Assembly (NCBI GenBank): GCA_009602735.1
Contig: WELA01001079.1
Location: forward strand, 1 to 64,000
Reading direction: 5' to 3'
DNA: 64,000 bases
Origin: Mesotaenium endlicherianum
Lineage: Eukaryota
Positions 7,831 to 41,540 of this stretch are shown here, one piece after another. Position numbers and translations under genes: made by a program. Under the pieces are notes generated by a model. That model saw only the letters and a list, made by a program, of their open reading frames with translations. It made no database searches and was not told the origin of the DNA. Position 1 is the stretch's first letter. Every line of letters begins with the position of its first letter.

Positions 7831-7836
7831 GAAACA

Positions 7837-8576
7837 TGAAAGGGGCAGAGGGCCCTACTGGAAGCGTACTGACCTCACGAGGGAAAGAACTAGTTGCAAT
7901 CATACTAAAGTGTGCAGCGGCATCTCACTAAGAAAGTTGAGGAAAATTACTTGACATCTTGACTCGCAAGAAACTGCTCACACATGATGTAGGATGGAAG
8001 GCCTTGTCAATACAAATCCGTGGAAAATTACAGAAGGGAAAATTGATAACAAACAGACAAGTTATGTCTACTTATAGTTTTATGCAAAAATGCTTCTCTC
8101 TACGAGGAAGCTACGGAATTTCCAAAGTGTTAGTGAAATCGTCCCTTCCAAAATTTTTATGAGTAGGCCAGATCAGTCTCATCTGACGTGTCGGGCCAAA
8201 TTGACGTCCACATACATGCATCGACATTACTAGAATATTCTTTCTTAGGCGCGCTAAGCTACACCGAAACTTTGAGGTAGATCAACCTAGTCAGCACTCC
8301 GTGTTAGCCAAACTTACGTGAAGGTTCGAGTTCACTCTAACGGCCCAGATTGCTCGACGCTGTCGGTCAATCCGACGGTCGCGCTCACCGCGAATTAAGG
8401 ACAGACGTCTACCGACCTCAAAAGAAATTAAACTTTGAAAATCTATAATTCTCTCAATACTAAATTCGATGAACTTTATATAGAAATGACCACATACATG
8501 CACTCTAGACTTCTATGCAATCAAAATTTATCTTCATGAAACTCAAAAATGCACTTTATAAACCTTTGACCTTACA
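7837..8576 (-). repeat. 3' LTR of element C (family 2)
   Basis: TG...CA termini; homologous to 13566-14329, 45119-45861 and 50008-50748. Confidence 0.9.
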
Positions 8577-10357
8577 TTATCCCCCTCCTCAAGATGCGAC
8601 GTTCTCGACGCATTTTGCAAATAACGTCTCAACTTACTCTCACAATGAGTGTGTTTGGTGTCTAGCTCCAAAGTGTTGTTGTTCGCATGGTAGCCTTTCC
8701 ACTTAAGTAGATACTCTTGAACAAGTTGATCTCGCTTGACTTGTCGATCGCCGACAATTGCCTCCACTCCATACTCCAATGCATCATCGATCTCGACTGG
8801 TGGTGGCGATGTAGGTAGTCCTCCTGGATGTCCTTCATTCGGGTCAACGTATGGCCGCAAAAAATTGACATAGAACACATCATGGATGCGCCAGCATGAA
8901 GGAAGGTCCAACTTGTAGGTCACTGGATTAACCTGCTTGAGCACCACAAAAGGACGTGTGAACTGTGTTCGCAATTTCCTCTTGCCTGTGAAAGGTAGAT
9001 TCTTTGTTGACAAGAGTACTTTGTCACCCACATGGAATGTCACTTCCGTCCTGTGCTTAATAGCATGCTTGACTAGCTCATCTTGTGCCTTCCGATTACA
9101 AGTCTTTGCCATGTCCCATGTCTTGGCCATCTGCTCCATCAAAGCTTGTGAAGTGGAAACCTGAGTCTTTTTGGCCTTCCCCAACAAGATGTTCCCTGGA
9201 TGGTATACTTCTCTCCCATAAACAATGGTGAATGGTAACTACTTTGTAGATCCTTGCATGATGTTGTTGTAGGCAAACTCCAAGCCTAGTAGCTTCTTGT
9301 CCCACTCTGAAGGGTCTTCCATACTGTAACTTCTGAGCACCTCTTGCAGAATTCTGTTGAGCCTCTCACTTTGCCTGTCTGTCTGAGGATGTTAGGAAGT
9401 GCTTATACTTAGCTTGATTTCCATCAAAGCAAACAATGATCGCCAAAAGTTGCTACTAAACCTTGGATCCCAATCTGAAACAATTACCTTCGGCATCCTA
9501 TATAGCCTAAAAATATGAACAAAGAATAGCCGTGCCACATCTGTTGGCGTAGAAGTCTTCTACATGGAAATGAAGTAAGGCTTCTTGCTGAGCCGACAAG
9601 ACACAACCCAAACTGTATCGTGCTCTTGACCACTCACTGGTAAAGATCTGCTACCAAGGATACTCTGGAATAGGCAAGGGTTGCAAGGTACCTCCCTTCT
9701 TTTGATATGGTATCTTGTTGCGCTGGCACGCATCGCACCTCCCGATCCACTCCTCGATGTCCTTGTCCATATTTCTCCAATAGTACTCCCGCTTCAGCAC
9801 GCTTGCCGTCTTCTCGCTTCCAAAGTGTCCAGCATATAAGCAGTCATGATGCTCCGCAAGTAGTAAGTCTCGTAGCTCCTTGATGTTAGGTACCACCACT
9901 CTCTTGGAATCACCATAATACCATATGCCGTCCTTCTTCTGCATACTCAAGTTGGACTCAGCTGCACCACCATCAGCAAACTGTGGGTTCTCCTCATAAC
10001 CTCTTTGAAGCTTCTCCTTGAAGTCCATACTCTCCTTGATGATTGAGACAACTGCAAAGTCAGACCTTCTGGATAAAGCATCTGCAGGGTTGATCTTTCC
10101 AGGTAAATACTCAATCTTGTGGCAAACTGTTGCGAAAATTCCATCCACCTTGCCTGTCTTGGTGTCAACGTTGGTTGCGTCATAAACTTCTCCAAGCTCT
10201 TGTGGTCGGTCTTGATGAACACCTTCCGTTCGTCCACATAACATCGCCAAATCCTCAAAGCCAGGATAATAGCCAACATCTCCCGCTCGTGTGCTGCATA
10301 ATTCAGCTCAGCAGGAGTCAACTTCCTGCTCTCGTATGCCAGAGGCTGCAATCCCTT

Positions 10358-16068: not shown

Positions 16069-19000
16069 TGTAGAAAATAAGCAGTCCTAGCTCTAATTGC
16101 TTAGCATGTGCTTTCACATGTGTGGAGGTTGACTGAAGTTTGTGGTCGGTCGAGGCCGACTAATGTTGGCTGAGAGTGTCGATGTGTAGGGCTTCTGATG
16201 ACTAGGACTGTCGATTAGTTCAAGGTAGGTTAGCAGCCGCAAAAGTGAATATAGAAGGGCAGAGAAACTTGTAAGGGACACACTTGAGTAAGAAAGAGTT
16301 GAGCCCCCGAGAAAGAGAGTGCTCCTCTTGATGTCGTGTGCATGCTTATATGTGTTGTGTATGAGCTGCAAGTGAAGTATTTGTCTTGCTATAGAACGAG
16401 TAAGCAATGACAGATGAAGATTTTCAACATGGTATCGGAGCAGGTTCTAACTCTCGGCTCCCGCACTTCGATGGGAAGGGTACTGAGTATCTTGTGTGGT
16501 CGCGAAGAGTGTGTGCACAGTTAGCCAGACATGATCTCAAGGAGATAGTGCTTGGAAATGAAAAAATCCCAGATCCACTCGAAGTGCCCGCTGCAAATGC
16601 TGATGCAGCAACCAGAGAAGCGTATGTTGCGAATGGAGCAGCTAGAGTTGCATGGCGAAAGAGGGAGGCACATGCATTTGATTTGCTTACAAAGAGCTTG
16701 GGTCAGGAGACCTACATGAGAGTGCTGAATTTAGAGACCAGCACAGCGATGTGGGAGTCGTTGAAGAACCTGCACCAGCAGTATAGTGTTGCTAACAAAG
16801 GCACCTTTAAGAAGAAGTTTGCTCTGTTGAAGCAAGAAGAGGGAGAGAGCGTGCAGTCCTACTTCTCCCGCATCAGAGAAGTGTGTGAGGAATTAAAAGC
16901 CTTGGATGCCGAGGTGAATCAAGAAGATCAGGTGATTCAAGCTCTAAATGGATTGGATTCAAAGTTTGAGACCTTCAGAGACTCCTTCTCAGTGCTGACA
17001 ACTGCTAAACTCACCATGGAAAACATTGATTCCAAGTTGCTCATTAAGGAGGTTCAGTTGGAGACCAAAGAAAAGGCAAGCTCATCCACTGAACAGGCTC
17101 TACTCATGTTTGGAGACAGGAAGTTTCGTCTGGTGGGCAATGAGCTAGTGGAGCAGATGGAAGAGCTTAGCGTGGCCAGTTCCAGTCGGCAAGGAGAAGG
17201 ATGGGGAGAAAGGAGGTCAGGATCTCATAGAGGAGGCTATCAAGGCAAAGGAGGTGGAAGCAAGAAAGGGAGATGCTTCATTTGTGGGAAGACAGGACAT
17301 TCTGCACCAAGCTGCGAGGATGCAGTGTGCTTCACGTGCAACAAGAAGGAATATCTGGCCCGGGATTGCAGCCAGAAGAGAGAAGGTACTTCCCTTCACG
17401 ATGCTGAAGAAAATGCCAATGCTGTTACTATAGAGGAGTCACTGGTGTGCAGCGAGCAGGATGAGGATGCCTGGTTTGTTGACTNATTTGTTGACTCCGG
17501 AGCTGCAAGACATGCCACTCCCAGGAGAGAGATCATGCTCGACTACAAGTCCTGCAGTGCACTGCCAGTCAGAGTTGGTGATGGCATGCTGCTGCAAGGG
17601 ATTGGAACTGGAAAGGTGGTAGTCATGACACAGCTAGGCAAGAGGAGGCACAAGTTTACGATGCAGGATGTGCTTCACTGTCTGGGACTAGTGAAGAATC
17701 TGTTTTCAGTGCCAAAGACCACAGCCCTTGGAAACACAGTGGCTTTTGAAGGAAGTGAGTGTCGAGTCATGGAATCGGACAGTGATGTGGTAATGAAGGC
17801 TGTGAAGTCAAGTGTTCAAGGCAGCTTGTTTAAAATCCAGTGCCAAACTGAGATTGCTCTATCTGTAATGGACCAAATTCTTCAGGTTGAGTTTGCACTT
17901 GGTGCACAGGGAGGTGCCAAGCTGGAGAGTGACATCAACCTGTGGCACCAGAGGCTGGGACATGTGAGTGAGCAGAGATTGAAGCAGATGGCACAAGACA
18001 AGGAGAGAGGGCTGCCAAAATTTACAGGGCAGAGTTTAGAATTTTGCAGGGGATATCAGATGGGGAAGCAGGCCAGGAAGGCACTCCCAAAGGGAGAAGC
18101 TTCAAGGGCTAGTGAGCTGCTGGGGTTGGTTCACTCAGATGTGAGGGGACCTGCTAGTGTAACAACCAGATCGTCAAGAAACTTGTAGTACATCACCTTC
18201 ACAGATGACTACTCCAGGAAGACTGAGGTGTATTTCATGAGAACCAAGGATCAGGCGTATGAAAAGTCCTTGAAGTACAAGGCATCCGTGGAGAAGCAGT
18301 TGGGAAAGAAGATCAAGACCCTGAGGATTGATAGTGGGTCTGAGTATGTCAACGGCTACTTTGACAAGTTTCTGTGGGACGAAGGAATCAAGCATGAGCT
18401 GACTATCACTTACTCTCTTCAGCAGAATAGAGTTGCTGAGAGGAAGAACAGGACTTTGTGGAGGCTGCAAGAGCGATGATCTTTGCGTCTGGTTCATCTT
18501 TGAGTCATGGCTCATCTAGACACTCAAGAAGAGAGAGTGTGCTACCTGCTAGATTTGGCTTTGATGAGTATGTAAGTGTGGCTGAGTTGATGGCTGAGGA
18601 GGATGCTGTAGAGAGTGAGGTGGTCTACATGGTAGGTGACTCAGAGCCCAAGACCTTTGAGGCTGCTATGCGAACAGAGGAAGCAGCTAAGTGGAGAAAG
18701 GCTTCTGAGGAAGAGATAGAGTCACTGGCAAAGAATGAGACATGGGACCTGGCAGAGCTGCCACCTGGTAAGAAGGTTTTGGGAGGCAGGTGGATCTACA
18801 GGAAGAAGAGGAAGGCAGATGGATCAGTGGACAGATACAAGGCGCGGTTTGTGGCAAAGGGCTACTCCCAGACAGAGGGAGAAGACTATCATGAGACTTT
18901 TGCACCAGTTGCCAAGATTGCCACAGTGAGAGTCGTGACGCAAATTGCCGCAGTGGAGGATATGGAGATGCATCAGATGGACGTGAAGACTGCATTTCTG

Positions 19001-20509
19001 TATGGAGAGCTGGAGGAGGAGGTCTACATAGAGCAGCCAGAGGGATTCATTGATGAGAAGTTCCCGAAGAAGATGTGCAAGCTGAAGAAGTCCCTGTATG
19101 GACAGAAGCAGTCTCCAAGAATGTGGAACCAGAAGATAGACTCCTTTCTTCATGGTGAGGGATTTGTGAAGTCCAATGCTGACAGCAGTTTGTATATGAA
19201 GGGAGCAGGTGATGACAGGGTGATGCTGGTACTATATGTTGATGACCTGCTGCTCGTTGGCAAGAAGATGGTGGAGGTGCAGAAGGTGAAGGATGCCCTG
19301 AGTCGTGCCTTCGATATGAAGGACTTGGGAGAGGTACAGTTCCTGCTTGGCATTCAGGTGAAGAGAGATAGGGCCAAGAGGATTGTAATGCTGGGTCAGC
19401 CAGCCTACTTGCAGACAGTGCTGGAGAGGTTTGATATGATGGGCTGTAAGCCTGTCAGTGTGCCCCTTGATCCTAAGCACAAGCTGAGCTCGAGTATGTG
19501 TGCTAAGGATGAGCATGAGTGGGAGATGATGTCTCAGGTGCCCATGAGGAAGGTTGCAGGTAGTATCATGTATCTGATGGTGTGCACACGTCTTGATTTT
19601 GCTAACGCAGTCGGGATAGTGAGTCAGTTCATGGAGAATCCAGGCCTTGCACACTGGGAGGCTATGAAGAGGATCCTGAGATATCTCAAGGGGAGACCAA
19701 ACCTGTGGTTGCACCTTGGCGGAAGTAACAGTGTGAGGCTAGAAGGGTGCAGTGATGCTGACTGGGGAGGAGACATAGACACTCGGAAGTCTACAACAGG
19801 CTATGCATTCTCTCTGGCTAAGGGTGCTGTGACCTGGAAGAGCAAGAGACAAAAGGTGGTGGCCTTGTCGTCCATGGAGGCAGAGTATATGGCAGCCTCA
19901 CAGGCAGTGAGAGAGGCAGTGTGGCTGAGAAGACTTTTGGAGGACCTGGGTTATGAGCAGAAGAGGCCCACTGTTATTTTGAGTGATAGTCAGAGCTGCA
20001 TTGCATTAGGGAAGAACCTTGTTGAGCATGCTAGGAGTAAACATATAGATATTCAATACCATAAGTGCAGGGAGTGTGTGCTTGATGGTAGTGTAGAGTT
20101 CAAGTTTGTTAGAACTGATAAGATGGTGGCTGATGCCTTGACAAAGGCTATTCCCAGATTATAGCACCGATGGTGTGCTGAGATGCTAGGAACTAAAAGA
20201 GATAGTGAGCAGATAGATTAGAACTGAGAGAGAGTGTAGAAAATAAGCAGTCCTAGCTCTAATTGCTTAGCATGTGCGTTCACATGTGTGGAGGTTGACT
20301 GAAGTTTGTGGTCGGTCGAGTCCAGCTAATGTTGGCCGAGAGTGTCGATGTGTAGGGCTTCTGATGACTAGGATTGTCGATTAGTTCAAGGTAGGTTAGT
20401 GCTCCTCTTGGTGTCGTGTGCATGCTTATATGTGTTGTGTATGAGCTGCAAGTGAAGTATTTGTCTTGCTGTAGAACGAGTAAGCAATGACAGATGAAGA
20501 TTTTCAACA
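16069..20509 (+). mobile_element. Ty1/Copia LTR retrotransposon, structurally complete but defective
   Basis: LTRs 16069-16429 and 20235-20509 (TG...CA); 5-bp TSD gctgc at 16064-16068 and 20510-20514; PBS tggtatcggagc 16430-16441; PPT gagagagag 20226-20234. Confidence 0.97.
16407..20164 (+). pseudogene. Copia gag-pol (gag with CCHC knuckles, protease, GAG-pre-integrase, integrase, RT, RNase H); frameshifted, integrase C-terminus deleted
   Basis: CFICGKTGHSAPSC; FVDSGAARH; LWHQRLGH; VHSDV; QNRVAERKNRTL; QMDVKTAFL; LYVDDLL; SDADWGG; RSKHIDIQYH. Confidence 0.95.
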
Positions 20510-21436: not shown

Positions 21437-22585
21437 CTGGCCCAAGAGACACACGCGGTTGACCTCGCAGATACCGTCCACCTGCGTGAGGTGTGGAGGG
21501 AAGCCTATTGCACGCTCTATCTCTACGGCACCAGGCCGCTGGAACATGCCAATTTCGAGGTCAATATACATGCTGCGCTGGTCCCCCACGTGGGCCGCGC
21601 TGTCGTAGTGACTCACGAATGTTGGAAGCGCCCTCGTGACATAGTGGAGGACCTAACACTGATTTTGGGAAGGATGTGGAAAAGCGACCACCCGCTGGGC
21701 CAGGCGCGTCACATCGAGGATAGAGTTGACGTTGCGCGCGTGGCGCGGATGTGCGGTTGCCAAGGCCTCGAGCATGCCTGGCATGGCCAAGATGGTGAAG
21801 TAGGCACGCACGCAGTGCGCGAAGAAGTTAATCTGGGTAGCGTGGATGACGTCAAACGGCCAACGTAGCTGTTGCAGAGCTCGAAGTTGGTGCGCACGTT
21901 GGGCCGAGAATTATGGCGGACAGCCGTGTTCTCCATAACCCAGGCGAGCGTGTGCGGCAATTGGCGGTCCTCAACCATGTTGAAGACGCGGAGTAGATGC
22001 CAGAATAAGGCCGTACGCGGGTCATCGAGCGCACCTCCTTGCCCAGCGATGGAGAATCCCTGGCACTCCCAGCCAGCCAGCAATGATGAGGTCAAGTGAC
22101 CCAAGTCGTGTGATGAGCTCGGCGGCGGTGTCCCGGATGTCCATAGACCAGTCGGTCTGGGCACGGTGGAATGCGTGCGCAGTGAAGAGGTCAGTGAAAT
22201 GCTTGTGGCACAAGGACATGTGCCGGCAGACCACCTGCTGCGCCTCGGCATCAGGGTCCAGGTAGACGTACTGACGTACAGGAATGCTAGCTTGCAAGGT
22301 GGCGAGCAGCTCTGTCGCAATGCCGACAAAGAGCCTGTCAAGGACAATGCCAACAAGATGCTCGTCGAGTTGGTCGAAGTAGATAGGCGTAGGGAGGGGA
22401 CGACAGCGCATGGCGGGAACGCTTACCTGCGTAGGAGGAGGATAGATGCGGAGGACACCATGCTGATGGGGCGCTATGCAAAGGGCCGCCACAACGCGCT
22501 CGACACAGTCACAAGTAAGCCTTGGGAATGCGCTCGAATTGCAAGGAGAAGGCCTGGCATCCTTTACATCAGGGACCTGAGGCAT
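21437..22585 (-). pseudogene. Isolated C5 cytosine DNA methyltransferase fragment, probably Gypsy-derived and frameshifted
   Basis: Motif I GIVLDRLFVGIAT; DIRD; motif IV LIIAGWECQGFSIAG; DPRTALF; motif VI WVMENT; motif VIII FAHCVRAYFTIL; motif IX PGAVEIERAIGFP; motif X RVCLLGQ cut by the LTR at 21436; GC-rich island. Confidence 0.85.
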
Positions 22586-24499
22586 AAAAATAAAAATGCA
22601 CTAAATTAATTTTCACTATCTGTATTCTTCTTCTTACATTTTATGCCACACTATGGAAGAATCTTGCCCTTTCTCTTCAAGCACAATTTAGTTGGTGAGT
22701 GAACTCTACAAGTCTTCCTAGATTAGGCCCTATCCTACATTCAAATGAAGCATACTTCACCCTGCTCAGTAACTTCAAGAGCTATGCATCCCTGCTCTTG
22801 TCTCTTGTCCCAAAGTTTCTTCCTGCCAGCACCTCGCTTGGCACCTCCTTGCAAATCTGTGTAAGCTTACATAAGTGTATTGTGTACAACATCCATCGCT
22901 TGTTTGTCCTTCTTTGCAGACCTAACATGATGTTCTATGCTAGCATAACTATCCAAAAGCAACTTGGAATAAGAAGGGCGGTCGTAGAATCCTTCACAAG
23001 TGCCATTAAGACCAGACTCAGGATCATTCGTAACTGCAATATCGGTATCAGCTTCCACTTCGACTTTCTTCAAATCAGAAATAACACGAGTTTGAATTTC
23101 AGCGCGAATACACTATTTAACTATGTAATGACTTGGATAAACCACGTCAATTGCTTTTTGAGCTTTTGCACTTCAAATAACTTTCTAGCATCTTTCATCT
23201 GCTCTCATTTGACATGAAAGTCTACCTCTTCTCTTCAAGGATTCTTCAGATTTCCCCTGAAGAGGTTGTCAAAGGTGCCGCGCTTTGGTCTAGAAGGCTC
23301 CCTCTAGAGGTAGCGGCATTGATGACACAAGTGGAAATGCAGCGTTGTGCGGCGTGGCGCGGCGCAAGAGCACAAACATGCAGTATGTGTCAGTAAGAGT
23401 GAGTAGGTGGCACCCGTGTGCACTCGTGGCACCTTACTGCACCTGAGTGTACCTGATGGCACCTGACTGTGCTGACTCAGCCTGCCTGACAATAACAGCT
23501 ACATGCAGAAATGGGCGGTCAGCGACTTCAGCGATCACATACAAAAATAGCATGATGGCCATAGATATGCACAAATCAACGCAGATTGACGATATAGGAC
23601 GAGAAAGACAAAGCGGGACCAAGCGGGACAAAGCAAGCAAAAAGTTTGAGGGCGACAACGTATGGGCACATCTAAGCTTCACACAAATTATCACCGGTTT
23701 TCAATGCTAAGATTTGTTGACAACGAAATGTTGATATGCCTACAATTGAAAGGAGCAATCCGGGACGCTGAATGTGGTTTAATATCAATCAAGTTCATCA
23801 TTGCAGGCGCTATGTTAGATAGAGCTTGCAATGAAATGCAATATATTGCAATGACGTGCGATAGCTGAGCTGGCTTGCGCTGGAGTGCGACAATGCCGAC
23901 TAACTTCGCCGAGCTTGGTCCCTAATCCAACAGACTACGCGGCGTTCAAGCAACTTTTGAATGAACGCCATTAATTCTAGTTCTTTTGAAAACGACGACA
24001 TAAAACGCGTGTACTGTGAATTTGCCGACTAAAATTCCAGCATTTAGATTTTCCAACCTTGAAAAAACCTATATTTGAAAAAGGATCCATTAAAGATCTT
24101 CATTTTGATTTTCGGGCGTTACTAATGTCGTGCCTAACAGTGTCGGACCCGTGGTGCGTGCGTGTCTTCCCAGCACATGTGCCTTCGACTTGGTTGACGT
24201 GTCGGTGCGTTGCTGCACGTGGGAATCGACCGGGTTGATCTTCCCTTGCACGTGTGTCGGTGACAGTCTGGTTGGGGTTTGACCCATTCCTGGTCTTCTT
24301 GCACTTGCATCATGTGGTGGGGCATCCCACACTTAGTGCTTCCCATGTTCAACCAGTTCCTCATTCAACACTAAGCAGAAATTTTAAAAAAGATAGCTTA
24401 TCTTCAGTTTCCCTTACACCCCTTCCTTTCAGCTGAGGCGTCCCTGCCTTTCTGCTGAAAGCTTTTATTTCCTGGCCCTATGGCTGGGGGTTTTGGGAA

Positions 24500-24628
24500 G
24501 GCAGTCAAGACATTCCCACCGTCCTGCCATAATCTTTTCTTCACCAATGCAGAAGGTGTGCCAACGGGCACCGACTTATCGCAGGTTACCATTGCTTCTT
24601 GATCATCCAACACTTTGCAGCTGGCACA
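24500..24628 (-). other. PHD finger (C4-H-C3) at the integrase C-terminus of element B
   Basis: Correcting a 1-nt frameshift gives CASCKVLDDQEAMVTCDK(C)GARWHTFCIGEEKIMAGRWECLDC. Confidence 0.85.
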
Positions 24629-27600
24629 AGGCATGGCTGGCACCAATTCCTCGAGCTCAGTCTTAACTGACGATCGATATTTGGCAAATGGCACAGCGAA
24701 CAATTTTGTACGTGATCTCTCATGGTCTTACCATCAGAAACTTCCAGTTCCAACACACCATTGTCGAACGCATGTTTCACGTGTAAGATTATTGCACCTG
24801 AACTGGTGTCAATGGTGGTCTTAGTCTGGCGCTTGCGGTAGACGAAGTCTCCTTCCAAGATCTGCGTCATTTGCAGGCGGTAGCTCCCATCTCGCGTCCT
24901 GGCGTAACGCTGCGTGTCTCTTTTCTTTGCAATTTTCAGATTGTCCAGGGCAGCAGGCATCATGTGCTCAAATAACACCTTGCGGCGCAACATGACCTTT
25001 AACAGTTCATCAGGGTTGTCCAGATCTTTCACCTGCTCATCTCCTGCTTGATGCTGCAGGGCACAATTGGACTTCTTCCCAACAGAATCTGATAAGGCGA
25101 GTAATTTGCCAAAGAAGCTTGCTTGCTAAATCTGTAACCCATAACCAGCCATGGCAGGGCCAGATCCCAATCACGCTTATCATGCTCAAGGCAAAATTTG
25201 CGCAAAGCAAACTTAATGGTTTACACCATCCGTTCTGCCCGACCATCTGCTTGTGGGTGGTCTCTAGACGTAGTGCGCTCGTCAATGAAGCATTTAACCA
25301 GGAGGTTCTGAAAAGATCCTTAGAACTCAGACCCTTGGTCTGTCAACACTTCTGCTGGGGCTCCATGACGTACAATCACACCATTGAGGAGCGCTCTTGC
25401 GGTCCCCAAGCTTTCCTTAGCGGTTAGAGGTACCACCTCTATCTACTTAGAAAAATGCTCAATCATGACCATAATGTACTTGTTACCTCGCTTGGACAGC
25501 GGTAACTCACCTGCGAGATCGCAGCTCCACCGATAGCCTAGGCCCATGATTAGCAGTGGTTGCACGTGTAGGTGTTGCTGCGTAAAACCAGCCTTGACGC
25601 GATCGCAACTTGTACAGGCCTTGATCACATCCTCACATTGCTGCTTCATGCCCCTCCACCAGTAAGACAGCTCCAGAAGATTGTATGTCTTCTTGACACC
25701 ATAGTGTCCATTTATTATGATGCATTTCCTGCACCAGAGCTCGTCTTTTGGTGGATTCTGGCACTAACTTTTCCTGACCAGTTTCTTCAATCTTGAAGAG
25801 GTTATTGCGTTTCCAGCAAAACCTTTTAGCTCGATGACCTACCTGGTCCTTTTCTTTTGCCGATAATCCTTCCATATGGACCTTCGTCTTCAACCAATGC
25901 ATAGTGGCTTGATCTTTCCAGATGTCTGAACTGAACAAAGGTAGGGGCTCAGCTTCTCCTGATGCTACCACTCTAGCCATTTAAGCCAGGCAGGCGGCCA
26001 ATTCTGTGGGGCTGCTCAAATCTTCGTCTTCTCGAGCTCCTAACCTGTCGTGTGCGGATGGGTCCGGGTTCCTGCTGAGTCCATCAGCGTCGTTGTTGAG
26101 TATACCTGCTCGGTGTATCACCGTCATCTGGTACTCCTGGAATTTGAGAGCCCAACAAGCCAGTTTACCAGTGAGGTCTCCATTCTTCATCAGCCAGAAT
26201 AATGGCGAATGATTTGTGATCAACGTGAAGGGTCTACCCCATAGATACTCTCTGAAATATGCAATAGCCCAAACCACTGCCAGTAGCTCTCCTTTGTAGG
26301 ACAAGTAGTTGCTCTCCGCTCAGTTGTTAGAGCGCGAGGCATAGGCAATGACGTACTTCTCTCTAGGAATTTCCAACACTGCAGGTGTCCTAGGAGCTGA
26401 ACTGTCCTTCTCCCATGTTCCAGTGGATGAGGGATGCACCATGGGAATGTGAATTCCCAAAGTCATGGCTTTGCGAATTACGCCATCCTCTCCCTCTCTC
26501 TGCAAAATCTCTGGGATAGGTTGTGGAGGAGGAGCCGTGGTTCCTTTCGGAACCCCTTCTCTCTGAGCTGTTCCCCTGTACTTCAAGTAACGCATCAGCA
26601 TCCGCCTGAAAGGTGCATTGCCTTCCCGGGCAACCTTTCTTGGTCTGCTTGCGCGACCGTGAGGATTTCCTTGTGTTGGTTCCACCTTAGCGATGCAGGC
26701 AGCCACTTCCTGCGGTTGTTGTAGCTAATGTGGGGTAGCTTCTGGTGCTGGCAAACTGGTGGTTGGAGTGCTGGATGTAGGCGACCTTAGATCGTTGTGA
26801 AGATCGGCCGAGCTGGGTCCTTCTATCACCAATTGGTCGTTCACCCAGTCATCCGTTCTGAGTTCTTCTAGCTCCTATAGATCCAGTTCAGGGGTAGGAA
26901 AACGTGGAATTGCTTCCTAAGTGTCCTTTTCAATGGTGACTGACGGCAGGTCGAACCCTGGAAGGTCTAGCATCTCTGCCTCATCTTCAACTGATTTCGC
27001 CGCTCCGGGTGGTGGCGTTTCTCCTTCATTATCTGTGTTGAGCTTTGCCAAGTTGACGATGGCTGATTGCAGAGCGCTTGCCGCCTTAGCCACTTTTCGT
27101 TCCTTGTGTTGTCGGGCGTCTGCGTCCAGAAGCTGCTCCATGATTTGCCTTGCAATGGATTCAGCAGTTTGACTGGCTGAACCCTGCTGTTGCCCCTTAG
27201 CTTGCGGCTCTAAGCTCATCAAGGCAGGTGTTGTAGACAGTGTCTTGTCCAACTCCTCCTGGCGTTCTTCGAATATTACTTCGAGGCATATGGTCTTTGC
27301 AGACCCTCCAAAATCTCCTGACTTCTGGCTACTCTCTTCGGCCCATTCACTAGAATTGCACTGCTGTTCTTGCCTTGGTACTTGGTTTAGGCAGTATCCA
27401 GTAGTTTCAACTGTAAGCTCAGGAGCCTTCTTCTCAGATTCTTCTGACATGTCTTGTAACGACGCTCGCTCTGGTGAAGACGATACACTTTTTGTTGGTT
27501 TCCCAGCTACTTGAGCTTTCCTGCCAACAGTCTCCGTGCCCAGCTGCCCTTAGGCTGAGGGGGGTATCACACACTGACCCGGCCTTTTCTGGGGTCTCTT

Positions 27601-28039
27601 GACGTCTTGATGTCGTTGTTCCGGGAGGTGAGCTCCCAAAAATCTTGCTGTAAGTGGCGTTTCTCACAGATAATGGGGTGCCATGCGTATCGTCCCCCAC
27701 TCCTGGTAGCGGTGCTGCTTGCTCAGGCGCTTGATCCCTCATGGGTGTATCCTCTCTTTCCAGAGGTGCTTGTAATTCATAGGTCCGATTATCAATCCGG
27801 TCCAATAGATCCTGACATCTCATGAGTGTTGCCATCCTATCTCCCCTCTATGCTCTGTCTACAGCGGCTTCCGCTGCGTCTCTTTGCACCCAGTATTCTT
27901 CTTGTTGCTGGTGTGCCATTCTGATAGCCCTCTGGTCAGATGTTGGCACCACATTGATCCCAATTGTTACTGGTCTTGGTCTCGGCATAGGCTTGTTGGT
28001 GAAGGTCAACTGTTGCCATGTCATGATTGTTTCCACCAA

Positions 28040-28995
28040 CCAAGTCATAGAGTGCTACCCGATCATGTTGCCAAAAACCTTTGCAGCCTCATCTGATCCT
28101 ACACCACCAGCCATATGCCGAGCTATGTTGTCGGGTATTCCAAGGCATTTGCCCTTTTCCACCGTGGTGGGCTCTTTCCACACGGCGTCTCTTTTATAAA
28201 TGTCTTTGACCATTCCTGGTCCACCTCCTCTGAAGGCTCGGGATCCTGGACATGTTGTGAAGGTAGGCAGTACCACTCTTGGCTGACCTGGTTCGTTGAT
28301 GACCCACTGTGGATAGGAATCCCTCCAGGTCACTGGTCTGGTATCCACCGCCAGTGCCTTTTACACTGTCAATGCTGTTGGTGAGCGTTGTGTAATGTCC
28401 TCCAATTCTCTCAGAACCTCGATAGACGTGCCGTTGGTCCAAAATATCCTGGCCCTATGAGACAATCCTTCGTGCTTGGCGTCGTTGATTAGCACATGAC
28501 GGCCCAAATTGGAGTCGAAAATCAGCCATTGTTCTCCCGACTTCATCTGCTTGTAGTCCATTCCTGGATGTACGTTCTCAATCACAAACACAGGTGGGTG
28601 ATAGTGCTGACGTTCCCGCAGTATGCTGATGATTTTCACCATCCATCCCCAGTGTTGTGCTCGTGGATCACTGAATTCCCTCTTGTTTCTAGCTTGAGCA
28701 AATGGTTGACAACGGAATCCAGCAAAGATCCAATCACTCCTGTAACCATACAGGTATTCAGGCTTCACGTATATAATGTTGCCTTCAGCAATGCACTCGA
28801 CATTGCTAGATACAAGCGCCAACCTTTGAAAATGATGCATTTGCCGCATCTGATTCATGACCTCTTGGAATGCTCGAAAAGTGTGGTCATTGTTGTCCAC
28901 ATACAGGACTTCGGCCACCTGTATTTCTCGCTGGATCAATGCTATGGTCCCACAGCCAAGTGCGGCAAATAATTCCAGCACCACCACTCCCCTTT
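28040..28995 (-). pseudogene. C5 cytosine DNA methyltransferase domain inside the element-B polyprotein
   Basis: In the 411-aa ORF 28361-29596, contiguous with the protease C-terminal half: motif I VVVLELFAALGCG; motif IV IFAGFRCQPF; motif VI FVIENV; motif VIII SHRARIFWTN. In ORF 28055-28348: motif IX EPTTVEKGKCLGIP and motif X KVFGNMI. Confidence 0.92.
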
Positions 28996-31900
28996 TGCGG
29001 AAAGGATCTTCCATCCTGACAATGCCTTGCGGCAGCGGCTCCACTCCAAGCATCGGATTTGGAGAGGAGGTAACTGGGTAGGGTACTAGCAGCAGCTCTT
29101 GCGGGCTGTGGTCCCTATTACTCACATTTTCTAGCTGCTTCATGATCCGGAATTGCCATACCAAGGGTGTTGGCATGTTGATGCTTGTATAGCCTTCCTC
29201 TTCTTGCTTCATGAGGTTGTCGCTGGCTTCTGGGTACGTGTCATTAAAGTAGCAGTCTAGCAGTCCGTAATTTGCTTCTCCTATGCAAACCATTTTCACA
29301 GGAATCTCTCCTGCCGGCTGTCTATCTGTTGACTGGTAAGTCACTCTCTGTTTCCGCAGATCAATGATCATACCCAAAGGAATCAATGTTTCTGTTCGAA
29401 AGAGAACATCATAGTTCTCAGCTTCCGTCACTGTGCACTCCATGAATTGTGACGCCTCTTTAGGTTCCCCTGGATTTACTATGATTTTCACAAGCTTGCG
29501 GGTAATCCCACAAGATTTTGAGACTTGTCCTGAGGCAGTTCTCGATTGAAAAGGACTCTCTTTCAGGTCCCTTGTCGTCAAACCTAGAGCTTTCACAGCA
29601 CGTTCCCCAAAATGACTGGCTGTGCGCCTGTATCCAACAGGATGTTGGGAGCTGCCCTGTTGTTGAAGATCAGTGCACCATCCTAATTTTGCACTCTTAC
29701 GGTGCTAAAATTGGTGGGCAATGAGGCGGTATTTGCACCTCAGCTATAACCATCTGATGTCCGGCCTCTTTAACCATGAATGGGTAGGTGATGTGCAAAT
29801 CAGCGAGAGAAAGCAAAGGAGCATGCTGGATCCGGTGTTCCACCAGAGCCTTCAGCTTCTCCAGTGAAAAACTCAATGTCTTGCGCGACCCGGGCCTGGT
29901 TTGTCGTAGCTGCGAGATCTCGTTTTCATCTAAAGTGATCCGGCAAGTGTGAGGAACCTTTCCCGCATTCCTTGGCACCAGACGGTTGTGATCTACTTGC
30001 TCGGCAGCTGTTGCATCCACAGCCTTTTCAGGCAACCGCTTCTCGCCTTTGCAGACGGTCTTTTCTGCAATGTCTGCATCATAATAGACATTAAGCGCAT
30101 TTAGATTTGCAAACTGTGCTTTCAACTCAACGATTTCTGCACTCATAGCTTCATACTTCTGGTTACCCTTGCGGTTACCTGAGCCACCCTTTTGTTTCTT
30201 TTTCTCTTTGTCTGCCTCTTTCGTGGCAGCATTTGCCCAGGGCGGCTTTAGATTTGGGTTCTTAGACCAACACTCATCTTCCGAGTGTCCCTTCTTACTG
30301 CAATGTGCGCATATCTACGCTTTGCTAGCGGATAGTTGCTTAGCATCTGGGTACAGGCAGTCTCTCTTGTGATACTCTGATTTCCCGCAATTCCAACAAC
30401 TCTCTGCTGTCTCAGCAGTGTTGGCGTGCTTAGCAAACTTATTGAAAGACCCGCTCTTTTACCCTAAACTGAAAATTAGAGCTGTTGGCCTTAGGCGAAG
30501 AGAATTCCTCTCTCCTCTTAGGAGCCATAAGCGTCCTGGAAGCCTCTTTATACCATACTTTACCTTCTTCGACATTTCGTGCTATTCAATCGCCTCGTCG
30601 ATATCCCAGTGAATCCCGTGTTTTGCGGACGGATGTGGCCTAACGTCACGATCTGTTTCCTTGCCGAAGCACAACAGAAACTTGTCAGCCACTATTCTGG
30701 GCTCGTATACTTTTGCCTTTTTGGCAAGGTCTACCAATCTGGATTTGACCTCCATGACTGTCTCGTTCTTCTGACGAACAAAATGTACATAACGGTGCAC
30801 CTTAAGACTGCGATCCTCAGGGAATCGTGCCTCAAGCAACTTGAAGAAACGACCCAGGCAATGCGTGGCGTCTAGCTGGTCATCCCCAGCCTCCATATCC
30901 TTACGACAGCTAGCCAAGGCTTGCGCATGGCTTGCCTCTCTCGTGGCGCTATCGCTTTGCTGCCCATTGAGAGGTGTAGCTCTGCGTGTTACTCGTTCCT
31001 GAGCTTTAGCAATCTTTTATGACAGTTCTGCACAGACCTTTTGCAATTCTGCGACAGAGCCGACATCATCATCTTGAGGGGCAGCCTTCCGCTGACCCTC
31101 AGTGAGTTGCCTCATGGCCTCTGTTAATTCTTGTCTTAGTGCAACTAAGTCTATGCTCTCAACAGGAGCAGTTGTCATTGTTCTTCTTGAAGATAAAGTG
31201 GACATTCGGGCTTTCGCAGCCTCTTTCTGGATTTTTAAATCCCTAGCCCTTTTCTGTTCTTCAAACGCCCATTTTTGGGTGAGGTCCTCGTCCTTCCGGA
31301 ATTGGCGATATTACAGCAGGGCATCCTTGTCCAAATACTGAACCAAGCCTATAAATGCGACAGATTGCGTATAAGAAGAATCCTTCCGAATCTTCTCAAA
31401 GAATTATGCTCAATAGATCTCATCAAACTCTTCGAAAGTGAGACCATTTCCGCTGGTTCGTCCAATAAAACACTTTGCAGACAGCTTGAACTTAGGATTT
31501 TCATCCCGTTCATCACCGGCCATTTCGAACGGTGAAGAGGACTCACTGACTCTTCCCCACACGTCTTGCTCTCTGCCCAAATCAGGTGTAAAGGCTCGTA
31601 TGTTATCTGGGTTCTCACCGTTTGCGGAGTTATAACAAGACTCGTCGCTCGACGTTTGCTCACTCCACCGGTTGTCAGTATGCACAGACGTCTTACTTTC
31701 TCGTGGACTCTGGCTAGAATCAGAACCTTCTGCAAGCTCCACAGAGTGGTAGAGTCTTCCACTCCTCAATTGCATATACAGTTGAATTTCTCCGGGTCCC
31801 TTTCCAGGTTGAACACCGGCACCCTTCACAGGCCTCAATCCCCAACTGACTTGGAAATGCTTGTTCACCTGAACCAATCAACCCAAGTTCTCAGAAGTAG

Positions 31901-33695
31901 GACAGAAGCGTCTTACTTCCACACAGGCTTTCGCCCAAGTTGAGGGTTTACAGAATGAACAAGTTGGTAGTTTGCAGAAATCACGTCTAAGCAGCTTAAC
32001 AGGCAATGCCAAGTTCAAAGAAAATCGCCCTTGAAGGCTTTCGCTTAACTTCCACGAGTCACAGCTTACAAAACTCTGAACTGCACATCTATGCTGGCCT
32101 GGTCTGAGTTCTTTGCTCAACACCGCGCCTCAACAGCTCTTCACTAATTGGCTGGGCTCACTCAGTTCTTCGCTGAGAGATTTTGCTTGTTAATACTACT
32201 CTTGCTATCAGCAATTCGACAATGGAGACTTCTAAGAACTTGGAAACTAAGACAGCACTCACCATTTTAAGTCACCCTCGCACGCTGGTGGCGTTTGACC
32301 CAAATCTATGCTACTCTCCTAACAGATTCTATTCTGCAGCTCTCTACTTTCTACCAGCGAGATCCTCTCTTGGGAACTTTTGAGGTCTAACCATTCTATG
32401 ATACACTTTAGGACGAAATCTTCCAGCGTCGACAGAAGCGTGGCGCTCTGACTCTTCTATGGCCTTGGGAACTCCTTCTTCTTCGCGCTCCTTTTGCTTC
32501 TTTAGCTTCCTTCGACAACGATGCGAGCAAGAATGAGGCAGCTTCAGGCAGGGCTCGTGCCTTTCACAGGCACCACACATTATCCTCTCTCGAGAATGCC
32601 AGTGCTTAGCCACCGCGCTTAGCTTGCATGCCGTCCTTGCCCGGCAGTTCTCTCACAGCTTAGAAGTTGTCATTCAGCATGCATGCATGCATGCATTGGG
32701 ATTGTTGCGCGTGACCACTCAGCCTTCCAGCTGACAATCACGCCTATGTGGCTGGCTGACAGCGTTTAGGATGAACGCTCAGGCCGTGACCAGTCACCTG
32801 AGGGCCTAGCCGAGGCGGCACACGGCGCCCTTTGCAACATCCTTGCTGTACTTGGCTTGGATAGCCGATTGATCAGTATCTTTCCTGGCACTTGCTAGTC
32901 TGGCTCATTGCTGGTTCCATGTCCCTAGCCTTTCGGCTGACCACTCGGTCCACATCCGCATCCCATCCTGGGTGTGGGCGTGACGTGTCGTGACCACTTT
33001 GACAGTGACAACGACTTCAACATGCCCGCTGACTCGGTCCTCTGGTCGGTGAGTCAATACTGACTTCCCGAACCTGGGCGGCCGTGACTTGCGCTGCGCG
33101 TGCGGCACCGTCAAGTGGATAGCAGTCGCGACAATAATCGCGCAACACAATTATTTTGCTCCTACACGTCGAATTTTGAATAATTGGCGCTATCTAAAGG
33201 CGCTATATGCCCCCTCCTCCTGGGGGAAGTCACCCCCCCATGCCTGAGAGTCGCTACTTGCACCACAAGTGCTGCGCAGTCCAAGTGGTAGCCATCGCGA
33301 CATACATTGCTCTCCATTTTCAATCTTTGGAGCATGGGGTGGTAACTCCCCTCCAAAATTTGGGTGAAATAGCGCCCAGGATTCAAAGATGAAAAATAGC
33401 GACCTGAAATCAAAATTATGCAGTGAATTAGCGCCCTTAAATCAAGGAAATGTGGGTCAATAGCGACCTGAAATTAAACTTGGAAAATTTTAGTATTGGG
33501 AAAATTAGTGCCAGTTATCACCCCATGCTTTGGAGGGTAAAATCAATATTTTGTACTTTTTTTGCGTGTGCCAGGAGGTTCGGAGTGCGTTATGACTATT
33601 TGGAGAATAAGTCTAAGGTTGCTGAACTTCTTCAGCAGGCTGAAGGTGAAATGGCTAGGACATCTGTACCGTGAGGAACCTCACTGTTTTAAGAC

Positions 33696-36195: not shown

Positions 36196-38129
36196 CCTCC
36201 TGGTGCGTCCCTGGTGCGTCAAAGGAACTCAGTTGAGGGCTTAGGCTGGAGTACAATAGAGAGCAGTGGATGAGCTTAGATTCTCTTTACATACCGCCCT
36301 CCTCTGTTGTCGAGGCCGCTATCTGCAGGCCATCTCTTACCTCAGAAGATAGGTTGAAGGTTTGTGGCGTGCATTCTGAAGATAGCTTTAGAACGGAGAG
36401 CAGGAGTCTAAGTCCACAAGCCGGAGGCTGTTGTAGCGGAGGACAGATGCCCCCAGAAAGCAAAATTTTGTATATCGTGAAGGGTATTCAGGATGGAGAA
36501 ACTTCGATTGCAGGTTCTCATGACGTGGATGTCTATTGGTTCTGAGCAACTATGGCGGAAAACGTTCAATTGGAAATAGCACATGGGTGTACAGTCTAAT
36601 TGAAAGCTGGGGTACTGCTTGTAGGAAATGGGTAGTTTTACTTAAGTGGCTCTGCTTTGTTTGAAATAACTCTTTGAAGGTACTCATTTGGATGATTTCT
36701 TTGAGTTATAGCCTCCGAAACAATACATCCTACAACAATGAGGTCCATGATCTGTTGACTTGCTATGGATATTGCTGTGCCTACTGAGGCTACTTTAAAT
36801 GTCGCCTGTGTCCATCGAGTACTCGTAATGTGTCAAAATAGAGGAGGGGAATCATCCGCACGTGACTACTCCACTACGTGGAGAGCGTTGTAAAAGGCAC
36901 TGATGAGCAAATATATATGGCTCGCTTACTTTGTATGCTGTGTCAGTAATTCATAGTGCATGCTCATTTAATTCCCCTGAATTTCACAAATGCACCACAT
37001 CAATGGTGCTGCATTTGGAAATCATAGCGGACTTTAAGAATCACACGACAATCCACAAGCTGAGGCACAGGCCAGTGTGTGCAGCTACGTCTGTAGAGCA
37101 CAAACTTGGGCTTGTTCCAAAAGGTATGCCCTGCAATAAAAGTTGTCCACGTCCATTGCATGGCAGGAATAGAAATGGGTTTCCCGAGCAACCTTGGAAA
37201 ACCTGGTGAGTGATCCACCGAGCAAACCGCACTCGTAGGTTTCCACTTTGTAGTTTTGGGTTATGACCCCTCGAAGTGAAGGTGTTTTATTGCGAAACAA
37301 CTGGGCACGACCAAATCAGAGAGAAAGAGCGAGAAAAATGTATCTCTCGACAGCCTTGCAATGATTTTGGCCCCTCCAAAACGACACACATGCACCACGC
37401 GCGGGCCAAATCACGCGACAATTGATTTTGGCGCTGGGGGTACCAATTCGGTACCGATCGGTCTCACTCGCGACTCTTTTGACAAAGTTAAGAACGCGTT
37501 GCAGCAGCTCACTTATCTTCTTCATAATTCTCTGTACACTCTCTTAGCACTTACAAGTCCTAATTAAAAGTTGTTAAGCACTTAAGGGCAAACACCTCAC
37601 AACAAAAAAAAAGACTTGAGACGAAGTGTGGAGGCATTGACGACTAAATGAAAGTGGCGGATTCACAAGAGTAGAGCCTATAAAAGGTATACTATGGCTC
37701 TTTTTGCTGCACTCTTGCCCCATTAACATTCAGCACTGTTATTCATAATGTTTGTTATTTGCTATAAAAGAATCGCAGATGGGTTTAGGACATGTCCACC
37801 CCGTGAATTTGTGGACAAATTCGTATAGACGTATTTCAAGACGATTTTGTGAGGAGGGTACGAGCGGCCTGGGAAACGCAGGGAAATGTAGGTGTCAACA
37901 TAAGCAACATAAGAAGGGAAGAAAATCATTTTTACTTCACTTTTGCCTTGGGGGCAGGTTGGGACCAAATTGGGGGCAGATTTTAGGGATGGGGGCAGAT
38001 TTTAGGATATTCATTACTTGATTACACAACAAGTTCTTATACTTACCTGAGCAGTAATAGTCCAGTATTAGTACTACGTTACTCATTATTCACCTCTTAA
38101 CTTCTTTTCTTTTGGAGTGGGGCTAGGAC

Positions 38130-39183
38130 TGTCAGAACCAGGCCGGAAACATCGCCCTATGTAACATGGCATCATACCCCAACTACTGTAGCAACTGTGG
38201 TGCAGCATGAGGTGTGGGACTTCTTTACAGTCAGAAGTGGAACAAGTCTTTCACGCGGGCTGTAGAAGTGAACCCTATGGGCTGGCTTGTTAACTATACG
38301 TGTCTATAGGAGGATAGACTCTACTCCTCAAGCAAGTGTCCGCATTAGTGATGTGAATGTGCCTAAGAACTTGTTTGAGACTCTCTTTGCAAATGTAGGC
38401 AAAGAAGTTCCCCATATGTGGCTGCCAAATTGCTTCCAAAATCAAGAGAGGTGGAAACTATTATCCCCCCTTTTTTCATGGAATGGAGGATGAACAAGTC
38501 TGGAGAGAAAACTCTCACTTTAAAGCTTTCATCTTCAATTTTAAACACGGGGGGGCATGTTGTGATGGCCCTTGACCAGTGGTATGATAGACTTGTTTAG
38601 AAGGCACATCATCATATTGACACTAGCACTCATATACGATATAGACTTGCTGATTACCCTCTTAGGATGCAAGCAAATGGGCTTGAAGTGAAGGATGCCA
38701 TGATAGAACCAGCACAACTTTCAAGCGCTATCCTGCAGAAGGAACAAGAGAGAATTAAGAGAGAGAGAGAACTATAAGAGAGCTTGTGAGTTGCAAGAAG
38801 CTGCTGATTTAACAACTCGTGAGTTGAGAATGCAAAGGTTACAAGATATGTGCACACCTGCTAAAAGAAAAGCAAATTCTGATGCTCCTTTTGCACCTCA
38901 ACCTCCTACCACCTCTAAGCTAGCTAAGCAAGCTGCTATACAAGTCACGAGAGAGGCAAGAGCTAAGGTTGCAAATGAAGTGAGGCAAGTGCTTCAACGC
39001 AGAGAAGAGGAAAATTGGTTGATTGCGCAACAAGAGAAGGAGCATGCTCAAGCAATGCAAGTTTTGGTAAGAGAAAGCAAGCACTTGTCATCAAAAGAGC
39101 TTATGAAGAGAGCGCGTGAGGTAGCTGCCAACAGGAGAAAGACTCCAGCAGGTGAGGTGCACATATACATATTATACATTTAA
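38130..39183 (+). pseudogene. Second, convergent gene of the DNA transposon: N-terminal CxxC zinc finger and C-terminal basic coiled coil, function unknown
   Basis: NYCSNCGAA here and FYCQKCNKSF in copy 2; CTPAKRKANSDAPFAPQ...QRREEE...REVAANRRKTP, conserved at 51470-52696. Confidence 0.55.
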
Positions 39184-39217
39184 CATACTGGTTCCTTCCT
39201 ACACTAAGCATGTTTTC

Positions 39218-41540
39218 TAGCTACTCTACTTCTCCACCTTCTTCTTCTATGACCGTTGGATCAGATATCGTTACAACTGATGCCAGCGGTCGTCGCTTGA
39301 ACACCACCTCCTTCCTCTTTTGTCATTCTTTTCTACTCAATGGTGGCTCTATGATGGTAGATAGAGCTCTCTTCCCATTCTCTTAATGTGTTGCCTGGCC
39401 TATTCTCCCTTTACTGTACACTCGTCCTGTAGCATCCACCATCACCTTCTTGTTGTTAATCTTGGCTAATTTCCTCCATTGATGCAATGCCTCTATACCT
39501 TGTCCACTAAATTGATCTTGGTCCCCATGTATCCTGATCATATTTCCTATATGGCACTTCAATATGTGTATGTACTCAGTAATGTGGTCTGCTGCGCAAG
39601 CTACTACAAACTTGTCCTCAAAGTCTTCAGCAAGGGCCTCCACAAGAGAAGCTTTAGCTTCTCTCTCGTCGCCCGTGTCTAGTGCCGATATTGGCTCCAT
39701 AAGGGCAGCCAAGCACACTCCATAAGCACCTCATGCTTCTAACACGGCTTGTAGCTGTTCTGCATCATCAGGCTGGTTACAGAAGACACACTCTGCCAGC
39801 TCTAGAAAGTACTCGAGGAGGCGATGGCTGTCCCCTCTAATGAAGCTTCGCATGGCTGTCCTATTTCTCTTCTCTCCTTTCTTCAAGGCCTTCACAGCCT
39901 CCTTAGGTGTTGATGCCTTCACCTTCTCTTTGAAGAGCTTGTAGAATTCATCCTATTTGGCTTGCCTCGGTGGTAAGAATGCATGCAAAGTTCTCTCATA
40001 AAGTGTAGTTGAGATTCTTAAGTTCAAGTGCAGTACGCATACAACACAGTCATTAGGAGATATGTTAAACAATGGTGGCTTCTTGTGTCTCTGTCCTTGG
40101 TGCTGGAGCAAGTATTCCAATCTTGCCTTAGTGCTCTCCTTCTCTGGCTTGCCTCGTGTCGTCTTCATGATGTCCTTGTCCAGGTCTGACATACTCTCAG
40201 AATGTTTTGAGCAGTGTGGACACGTCATCGACTAACTTGCCCAAGTCAGGAGCGTGAGCTGCAGCCTTCATCCCCTCCAAGTTGCAAAGGGCACCGCGGT
40301 GACACCTGTCGTGGATGTCCTTCGACGTGCAAAGGCACCATAAGCACGGGTACGTTGAGCTTGCTCCAGTCAGCCCAAACAAGCTGTTACTAAATTCATA
40401 ATCGCCACCCTGATAGAACTTGACTCTGAAGAGGTCCTCTCGTAAATGCAGGCGTGCTGTAGTAACAGTGCCTATTTGCTCCAGCAGCCTTGAAGACACT
40501 CCCTGTATGCTATTGTAGTCATCCTGACCTTCAAAGCATACGAGGGTGCAGGTATTAGCTGCTGATTTTCTCCTTTGTTCTCATTTTGACAGCTATTGTA
40601 ATCTGGTCTACTTCCCGGTGTAGTGCTGCTGCGTCTCCTACAAGCTGGCATCTGCACCCTTACTACTCTTCCTGGTTGGAGCTGCCATTGTACTATGTGT
40701 AGTCAAAAAGTTTCTGACAATGACAAGGTCACTGCCAGCCCATCTGTACTCTCTTGAGGTCCCACACTTCGCTGCCAAGTTCTTTACTTTCCTCCTAGAA
40801 GGCAGCTAGGGAAGGGGAATCTTGGTGTTCTTGATGTACTTGAGCTCCCATAGTCCTGTTGCTTGGAGTATGTCTTTGACATGATGTTGAAAAGCATTTG
40901 GGATTGCTCCTCAAGAAGCTTCAACTTTATTTCATAGCCAGGCCTATCCGTCATTCCACTGCTCCTGTATTTGCTTCGCTATGGCCTCCTCTATAACTGG
41001 CAAATCGGTTGTAATAGCTACCAGCATGAGTTGTTCTCTGGCTTGTTCAAGGCTTTCAATAACTTGCTCATGTTTGTCTCACATCCAAACTCGCCCCCCA
41101 TAATAGCTTCAGGTCATTGCTCATTCTTTGCCATGTTTTTGCAGATTCTCCACCTACTCTACGACGCTTTGCTAGAGGAGTTTGAGAGGCTGCCATTCAC
41201 ACCTTTTGCTTTAGGTACCTTATCTCTCTTCTAGCTCCTCTCAAGTCTTTCTTCATGCCCATGAAGTGCCGAGCAACCTATACCTCCCTATCGGTTGTTT
41301 TCGTGTTCACGCTTCTGTTTTCTTTTGTATACATTAGCATTTGAAACCTGTATCTCTTTACTTTGCTCTCTAGCCTCTTTGAAGTATCTACAAGTGCTTT
41401 CTCAACACTTCTTTTCTTCCTCTACAAGAATCTGCCACCTGTTCCTCTAGGCATGTTTGTGGTTGTCTGCAGTCTTGGTCATATCACTTTATTGGGTTGA
41501 CCTTGATTCTTTTTGGCTCTTGGGATGGGATGGGTTCATG
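39218..41540 (-). pseudogene. RAG1/Transib/Chapaev-like DDE transposase, copy 1
   Basis: LVGDAAAL (D1, ~40630); FYQGGDYEFSNSLFGLTGASSTYPCLWCLC (D2 plus CxxC); PLFNI...CVLHLNLRI; ITEYIHILKCH (HxxxxH); QFSGQGIEALHQ (E). Confidence 0.8.

Follow-up and report, generated by a model that had tools for sequence, protein, structure and literature searches.

Does a Gypsy retrotransposon that carries a DNA methyltransferase also carry a histone reader behind its integrase, and what might the two domains do in one element? The question is raised by a locus in the 64,000-nucleotide stretch of Mesotaenium endlicherianum DNA analysed here as a whole (the window), where a first-pass annotation had placed a complete PHD finger, hidden by a one-nucleotide frameshift, after the integrase core of such an element. 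The features at issue are:

24501..24628, minus strand: PHD finger (C4-H-C3), its fourth Cys codon hit by a one-base frameshift; the frame closes 11 codons on
24573..24575 (about), minus strand: the frameshift within the PHD finger, in the fourth Cys codon; absent from other family copies

Read in two frames of the minus strand, the window copy retains seven of the eight zinc ligands (C1 24628, C2 24619, C3 24583, His 24560, C5 24551, C6 24512 and C7 24503), so that the C4-H-C3 pattern is complete except for the fourth Cys, which sits at the break. The spacing is canonical, and the Trp two residues ahead of the last Cys pair is kept. A profile was built from 17 PHDs of relatives that had been picked up through their methyltransferase, and the finger, read through with an X at the break, matched it with 40.2 bits (E 1.2e-14). 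Among 2000 shuffled controls, 1986 of which were scored, the top score was 10.9 bits, and on this comparison chance was rejected as the source of the Cys pattern. Furthermore, the two PHD halves rank first and second for the profile across all six frames of the window. Pfam PHD (PF00628) gave no match for either half taken singly; intact relatives exceed the Pfam cut-off. Judged by these scores and ligands, the feature is a genuine PHD finger. It departs from the clade pattern in having Thr before Cys3, Arg two before His and a final loop two residues shorter, differences that may reflect decay or may be typical of the family, and it has three Glu upstream of Cys1.

The element to which the finger belongs runs on the minus strand from about 31900 to 24126, in the order Gag knuckle-like motifs, protease-like domain, C5 methyltransferase, linker of ~550 codons, partial RNase H, integrase, PHD, purine run and TG...CA repeat:

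31898..32300, minus strand: putative 5' terminal repeat unit, its outer limit approximate; sequence unlike the 3' unit, to which it is joined in other copies' contigs (split-repeat layout)
30255..30400, minus strand: a pair of Gag zinc-knuckle-like motifs, recognised by eye; Pfam gives no match in the window copy
29290..29650, minus strand: aspartic-protease-like domain with a DTG motif, matching the protease regions of relatives; Pfam gives no match in the window copy
28010..28996, minus strand: DNMT3-like C5 cytosine methyltransferase (DNMT); catalytic Cys, ENV and RxR kept; one in-frame stop
26362..28009, minus strand: long linker of low complexity, which other copies of the family cover at high depth
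26020..26361, minus strand: RNase H without its start, covering 55-168 of the 168 profile positions (the C-terminal two thirds)
25041..25712, minus strand: zinc-binding domain and catalytic core of the integrase; D-D-35-E kept; in-frame stops; frameshifts near 25038 and 25711
24673..25035, minus strand: C-terminal region of the integrase; identity of 42% to a relative with a PHD that was recovered with a PHD-free query
24669..24670, minus strand: a second break of frame, past the C-terminal region of the integrase and ahead of the PHD; absent from other copies
24126..24418, minus strand: 3' terminal repeat unit, TG...CA, immediately after the polypurine run

The domain order fits a Gypsy set, and intact relatives carry all of its domains; the window copy has no reverse transcriptase (RT) and only part of the RNase H. 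The linker that separates DNMT from RNase H had no match in any of ten proteins with the DNMT ahead of RT (layout A, see below). The one-base break inside the PHD does hide it, as the first-pass annotation had it, but further breaks near 24669, 25038 and 25711 and the in-frame stops of the core also separate the finger from the integrase. As for the ends, blastn found no 5' copy of the 3' terminal repeat. In contigs of other copies, the 5' repeat is linked at its inner end (31898) to where the 3' repeat begins (24418); each listed joint has 1-4 contigs in a run, as would be expected of split direct repeats. At two loci of relatives, L002 (10279-10994) and L003 (3014-3678), a repeat is seen twice after the PHD, ~530 bp apart.

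The methyltransferase claimed for the element was borne out by a match to PF00145 (E 1.6e-8). A profile built from the window DNMT and 20 relatives matched DNMT3A (1e-24) and DNMT3B best among solved structures, followed by DRM2 (1e-12) and HhaI (1e-10). The domain is intronless, non-permuted and DNMT3-like, and lies inside Pol. In these respects it resembles the streptophyte elements known as KnitGypsy-Dnmt3 or Gypsy-DNMT3 (the text available of PMC5890265; the name is also used in the accessible part of bioRxiv 10.64898/2026.05.21.726589), which likewise have an intronless DNMT3-like domain in a Gypsy Pol. DIRS-like terminal repeats are counted among the features of that type, and the window element and two relatives show signs of split repeats; the window copy differs from the type in its absent RT. 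According to the same text of PMC5890265, the isolated KnitGypsy-Dnmt3 domain had no activity in yeast. Two further decayed DNMT3-like Gypsy copies, of other families, lie in the window on the minus strand at 2400-7900 and 21500-22400; the former ends before the integrase C-terminus.

Contigs from DNA sequencing runs place the window copy within its family. In three DNA runs from one sample, 6441-7663 contigs fell on the element and covered 30 of 30 bins, and a fourth run gave 78 contigs in 23 bins. The PHD break at 24573 is absent from 10, 10 and 7 contigs in the three runs, the break at 24669 from 8 contigs, and that at 25038 from 6, 5, 4 and 1 contigs in the four runs. Likewise, contigs of other copies lack the stops at 25115, 25444, 25884 and 25983. 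Since the breaks and stops are missing from other copies' contigs and contig coverage is high, the window element is a decayed, dead copy of a high-copy Gypsy family. At these four integrase/RNase H stops and at the frameshifts, the other copies deviate from the window copy towards an open frame, suggesting selection on the family's protein. At the RT junction, no loose ends were found in the best 24 of 2622 and the best 6 of 373 rows, and no listed contig bridges the junction; the whole high-copy family may thus be RT-less. RNA reads numbered 17 and 7 in two runs, none of them 99% alike, and the 0 reads of a third run are no test; three of five RNA reads across the PHD break are without it.

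These data bear on the reading that PHD and DNMT are drifting relics in an RT-less, non-autonomous family mobilised by the enzymes of other elements. The missing RT of the window copy, the lack of loose ends among the best-supported rows, the very few RNA reads, the long branch of the window DNMT and the divergent window PHD would all suit such a history. Against it stand the deviation of other copies towards an open frame at stops and frameshifts and the retention of catalytic Cys, ENV, RxR and DDE alike, and we regard it as very unlikely.

Whether PHD and DNMT belong together was examined in relatives. A full HMMER search with the methyltransferase ORF returned 101 proteins, of which 25 reach the integrase and 19 extend at least 150 residues beyond its core, and a PHD was present in all 19 of these methyltransferase-selected proteins. 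Cluster members added later include two that extend equally far without a PHD (P0104 and P0110); in all, a DNMT without a PHD was seen in two clusters, both of layout A. A query with the PHD-free integrase C-terminal region gave a single match, which carries a PHD; a word-index search with the methyltransferase region and a metagenome scan with the methyltransferase ORF gave no matches. When the integrase-PHD region of a relative was used as query, PF00628 was found in 119 of the best 120 of 298 matches, a set biased towards PHD by the PHD in the query itself. DNMT profiles matched 105 of these 120; eight polyproteins spanning RNase H to integrase were without a match, and seven proteins were too short. 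Six of the eight have an N-terminus too incomplete to exclude an upstream DNMT, and one of the eight is probably a deletion copy.

RNase H, DNMT and PHD occur together in 95 polyproteins. Catalytic Cys and Glu are intact in 87 of them, one is cut, and seven have a degenerate DNMT beside a retained PHD (four of the seven are volvocine). Counted against all 103 polyproteins with RNase H and PHD, the same 87 keep a DNMT with its catalytic residues. In P0173, P0217, P0137 and P0183 (Chlamydomonas, Pleodorina and Tetrabaena), the DNMT fold lacks the catalytic Cys or ENV while the PHD is retained, and the C. reinhardtii relative CHLRE_09g398141v5 has a degenerate DNMT. As far as these proteins tell, the pairing of PHD and DNMT is conserved across the clade as a rule.

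Two layouts of Pol occur in the clade. In layout A (the window, Klebsormidium and Closterium proteins, P0210 and locus L002) the DNMT lies ahead of RT, and in layout B (Haematococcus, Chromochloris, Chlamydomonas, Tetrabaena and Pleodorina) between RNase H and integrase. The distance from DNMT to PHD is accordingly ~1060 residues in layout A (P0210), where RT and RNase H intervene, and ~540 in layout B. The A/B split had an SH-aLRT of 99 in both the integrase and the DNMT tree, and the window falls outside B. Note that these trees are quick searches on subsets with long branches, with near-duplicate and chimeric rows left out: 34 of 93 catalytic B rows were chosen for the integrase tree (33 in the tally), and 22 B rows for the DNMT tree. 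The window DNMT groups (SH-aLRT 99) with Klebsormidium nitens GAQ93235.1 and a Closterium protein of Gag-protease-DNMT order; its branch is 3.47 long, against 0.72 for the integrase. On these trees, the window element sits with the streptophyte Gypsy-DNMT3 elements, which points to a streptophyte plant or alga as its host, and the large chlorophyte group is their sister. In the portion of PMC5890265 available, the capture of the domain is placed in the K. nitens lineage, whereas the relatives found here reach chlorophytes with the DNMT after RNase H.

Some further domains were seen in these relatives. A tail of more than 250 residues follows the PHD in 81 of 129 (layout B: P0171, P0212, P0217, P0046 and others) and is absent from the window element. 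The tail of P0046 holds a Tudor-like stretch (PF21743), and that of P0171 an amino-methyltransferase-like domain with a weak match to PF02086; an SP[PW][FY] motif occurs in 22 of the 81 tails. Such tails would put DNMT3, PHD and a DAM-like domain in one Pol, a combination not among the EpiLTR layouts in the part of bioRxiv 10.64898/2026.05.21.726589 consulted. A G-patch domain is present in the Pol of P0019 and P0029, between DNMT and integrase, and in four of the best 120 of 298 matches.

The PHD had been said to replace the chromodomain of neighbouring Gypsy families. These neighbours do have chromodomains, with PF00385 matches in four ORFs (531-1088, plus strand; 8546-9238, minus; 48908-50017, plus; 57827-58273, minus), and the PHD occupies the same position after the integrase. 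By descent, however, replacement finds no support: PF00385 is absent from the window element and from the best 120 of 298 relatives listed, and in integrase the chromodomain neighbours are ~5.2 changes per site from the window element, against 1.4 for PHD-bearing relatives, the former figure coming from two outgroup rows, one of which (9k) is partly out of frame. A recent swap of chromodomain for PHD was therefore rejected. Copies of one chromodomain Gypsy family, about 80-90% alike, lie at 8-13.4k, 45-50.5k and 57-64k of the window. Chromoviruses (Ty3/gypsy) have a chromatin reader with a targeting role at this very post-integrase position, as stated in the accessible text of PMC6673714; the window element differs from them in the fold of the reader and in its distant integrase lineage.

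What the finger may read was assessed on 129 complete PHDs out of 132 from relatives. We take the invariant cage Trp of H3K4me3 readers to be the residue two before the His ligand. Trp occurs there in none of the 129 PHDs, Gly in 121, and Arg in the window copy, so that by this residue neither clade nor window copy belongs to the H3K4me3-reader class. A hydrophobic residue precedes Cys3 in 126 of 129, Asp follows Cys3 directly in 123, Met lies three before Cys3 in 112, and 73 have an acidic residue (Asp or Glu) three positions ahead of Cys1. For two relatives, the closest matches among solved PHDs include KDM5/Lid, PHF21A (BHC80), ATXR5, BAZ2 and UHRF1. In the sections available of PMC3241642, H3K4me3-reading PHDs have an aromatic cage with an invariant Trp, while readers of unmodified H3K4, a class that takes in BHC80 and DNMT3A/3L, lack the cage and have acidic residues ahead of Cys1 and a hydrophobic residue ahead of Cys3. 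Because the clade PHD has no cage Trp, has a hydrophobic residue before Cys3 and resembles these solved PHDs, it is likely to be a reader of H3 unmethylated at K4. The window PHD itself departs from the clade at two positions relevant to the class, namely Thr before Cys3 and Arg two before His.

Alternatively, the PHD could serve the integrase in folding or in contacts other than H3 (a host cofactor, DNA or capsid) and be kept for assembly. Some PHD fingers do have non-histone partners (the consulted part of PMC3241642), and the acidic residue ahead of Cys1 is found in just the 73 PHDs counted above. The residues of the H3 surface are nevertheless strongly conserved beyond the zinc ligands (the Met, the hydrophobic residue before Cys3 and the Asp after it), and we consider an H3-independent role improbable.

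In LTR elements, the element's own protease cuts Pol, and a C-terminal domain stays with the integrase, as in chromoviruses. We think it reasonably probable, arguing from domain arrangement, that the integrase-borne PHD tethers integration and that the DNMT is a separate module. The PHD of working copies would bind histone H3 tails unmethylated at K4, and this binding may steer integration away from active promoters. The DNMT would act apart from the PHD, and its most probable target would be the cDNA or the fresh insertion of the element itself, as proposed in the accessible text of PMC5890265; the only link between the two domains would then be the shared particle. A point against separate modules is the catalytic DNMT kept in 87 of 103 polyproteins, which would fit real coupling as well; the deviant residues of the window finger and the inactivity of the isolated KnitGypsy-Dnmt3 domain in yeast also count against this reading.

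The coupled reading, raised by the first-pass annotation as a parallel to DNMT3, holds that the PHD recruits or activates the DNMT at H3K4me0 chromatin, like the ADD of DNMT3A, so that targeting and methylation are one step. The window clade does share with the ADD-catalytic pair of DNMT3A/3L a DNMT3-type catalytic domain and a predicted reader of unmethylated H3K4. The PHD class agrees with ADD specificity, DNMT3A/B are the nearest solved structures of the DNMT, co-occurrence of the two domains is the rule, and in the chlorophyte-type Pol the integrase follows straight after the DNMT, an arrangement in which a fusion could persist. However, the reader of the window clade differs from an ADD in being a canonical PHD (KDM5/BHC80/ATXR5 type) that sits on the integrase, far from the catalytic domain; RT and RNase H intervene in the window's own group, DNMT and PHD have been lost or have decayed independently, and the window DNMT is on a far longer branch than its integrase. 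The fit to the reader class that includes DNMT3A/3L stands, and the ADD-like coupling is unsupported. With the domains 540-1060 residues apart, the DNMT at two positions in Pol and each domain lost without the other, integration targeting by the PHD is likelier than coupling, which we judge unlikely.

A bolder account would be that the DNMT3 logic arose anew in one old Gypsy clade of the green lineage, which spans volvocine algae and streptophytes: a PHD on H3K4me0 would bring a co-packaged DNMT3 that methylates the insertion on arrival, and the high-copy family would have kept DNMT, integrase and PHD after RT loss since they are useful. We hold this to be decidedly unlikely.

Several of these traits have precedents. 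PHDs and chromodomains are described as widespread in retrotransposons (the passages available of PMC6673714 and bioRxiv 2021.11.30.470311), and Gypsy-like Ginger transposases bear a PHD (PMC2836005, seen in part). Gypsy-7a_cRei of Chlamydomonas reinhardtii has a Gypsy Gag-Pol with a PHD, proposed to avoid harmful insertions, and no methyltransferase is listed for it in the part of bioRxiv 10.1101/2022.06.16.496473 available; according to the same part, intergenic insertions of a PHD-bearing Chlamydomonas Gypsy are 2.6 times above chance, in line with targeting by the PHD, though selection may explain the bias. EpiLTRs are LTR elements that, like the window element, join a histone reader to DNA methyltransferases; they have a chromodomain, DAM and a DNMT4-related DNMT, whereas the window element has a PHD and a DNMT3-like domain (accessible text of bioRxiv 10.64898/2026.05.21.726589). 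The word PHD is absent from the searched text and text supplements of PMC5890265 (whose domains are drawn in Fig. 4c) and from PMC6317226. In the openly accessible article and preprint text searched, no passage was found that states the PHD-DNMT3 pairing or the chlorophyte branch, and no retrotransposon PHD was found tested as a targeting device.

The window element is thus an ordinary member of a partly described group, and the dead copy itself adds just a further host and a form without RT. The text available of PMC5890265 treats the reason for DNA methyltransferases in retrotransposons as an open question. The clade is more useful here than the window copy, since natural comparisons within it can test what both methyltransferases and PHD fingers are kept for in retrotransposons: it holds PHDs with an intact, degenerate or absent DNMT and DNMTs without a PHD, and the genes are at hand in Chlamydomonas, Haematococcus and Klebsormidium.

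Elsewhere in the window, a repeat of ~5.6 kb occurs at 37400-43663 and 50749-56487 with 77-87% identity; the ORFs examined there gave no convincing match to Pfam. On the plus strand, a nearly intact Copia element lies at 16069-20509, with LTRs that are 96-98% identical.
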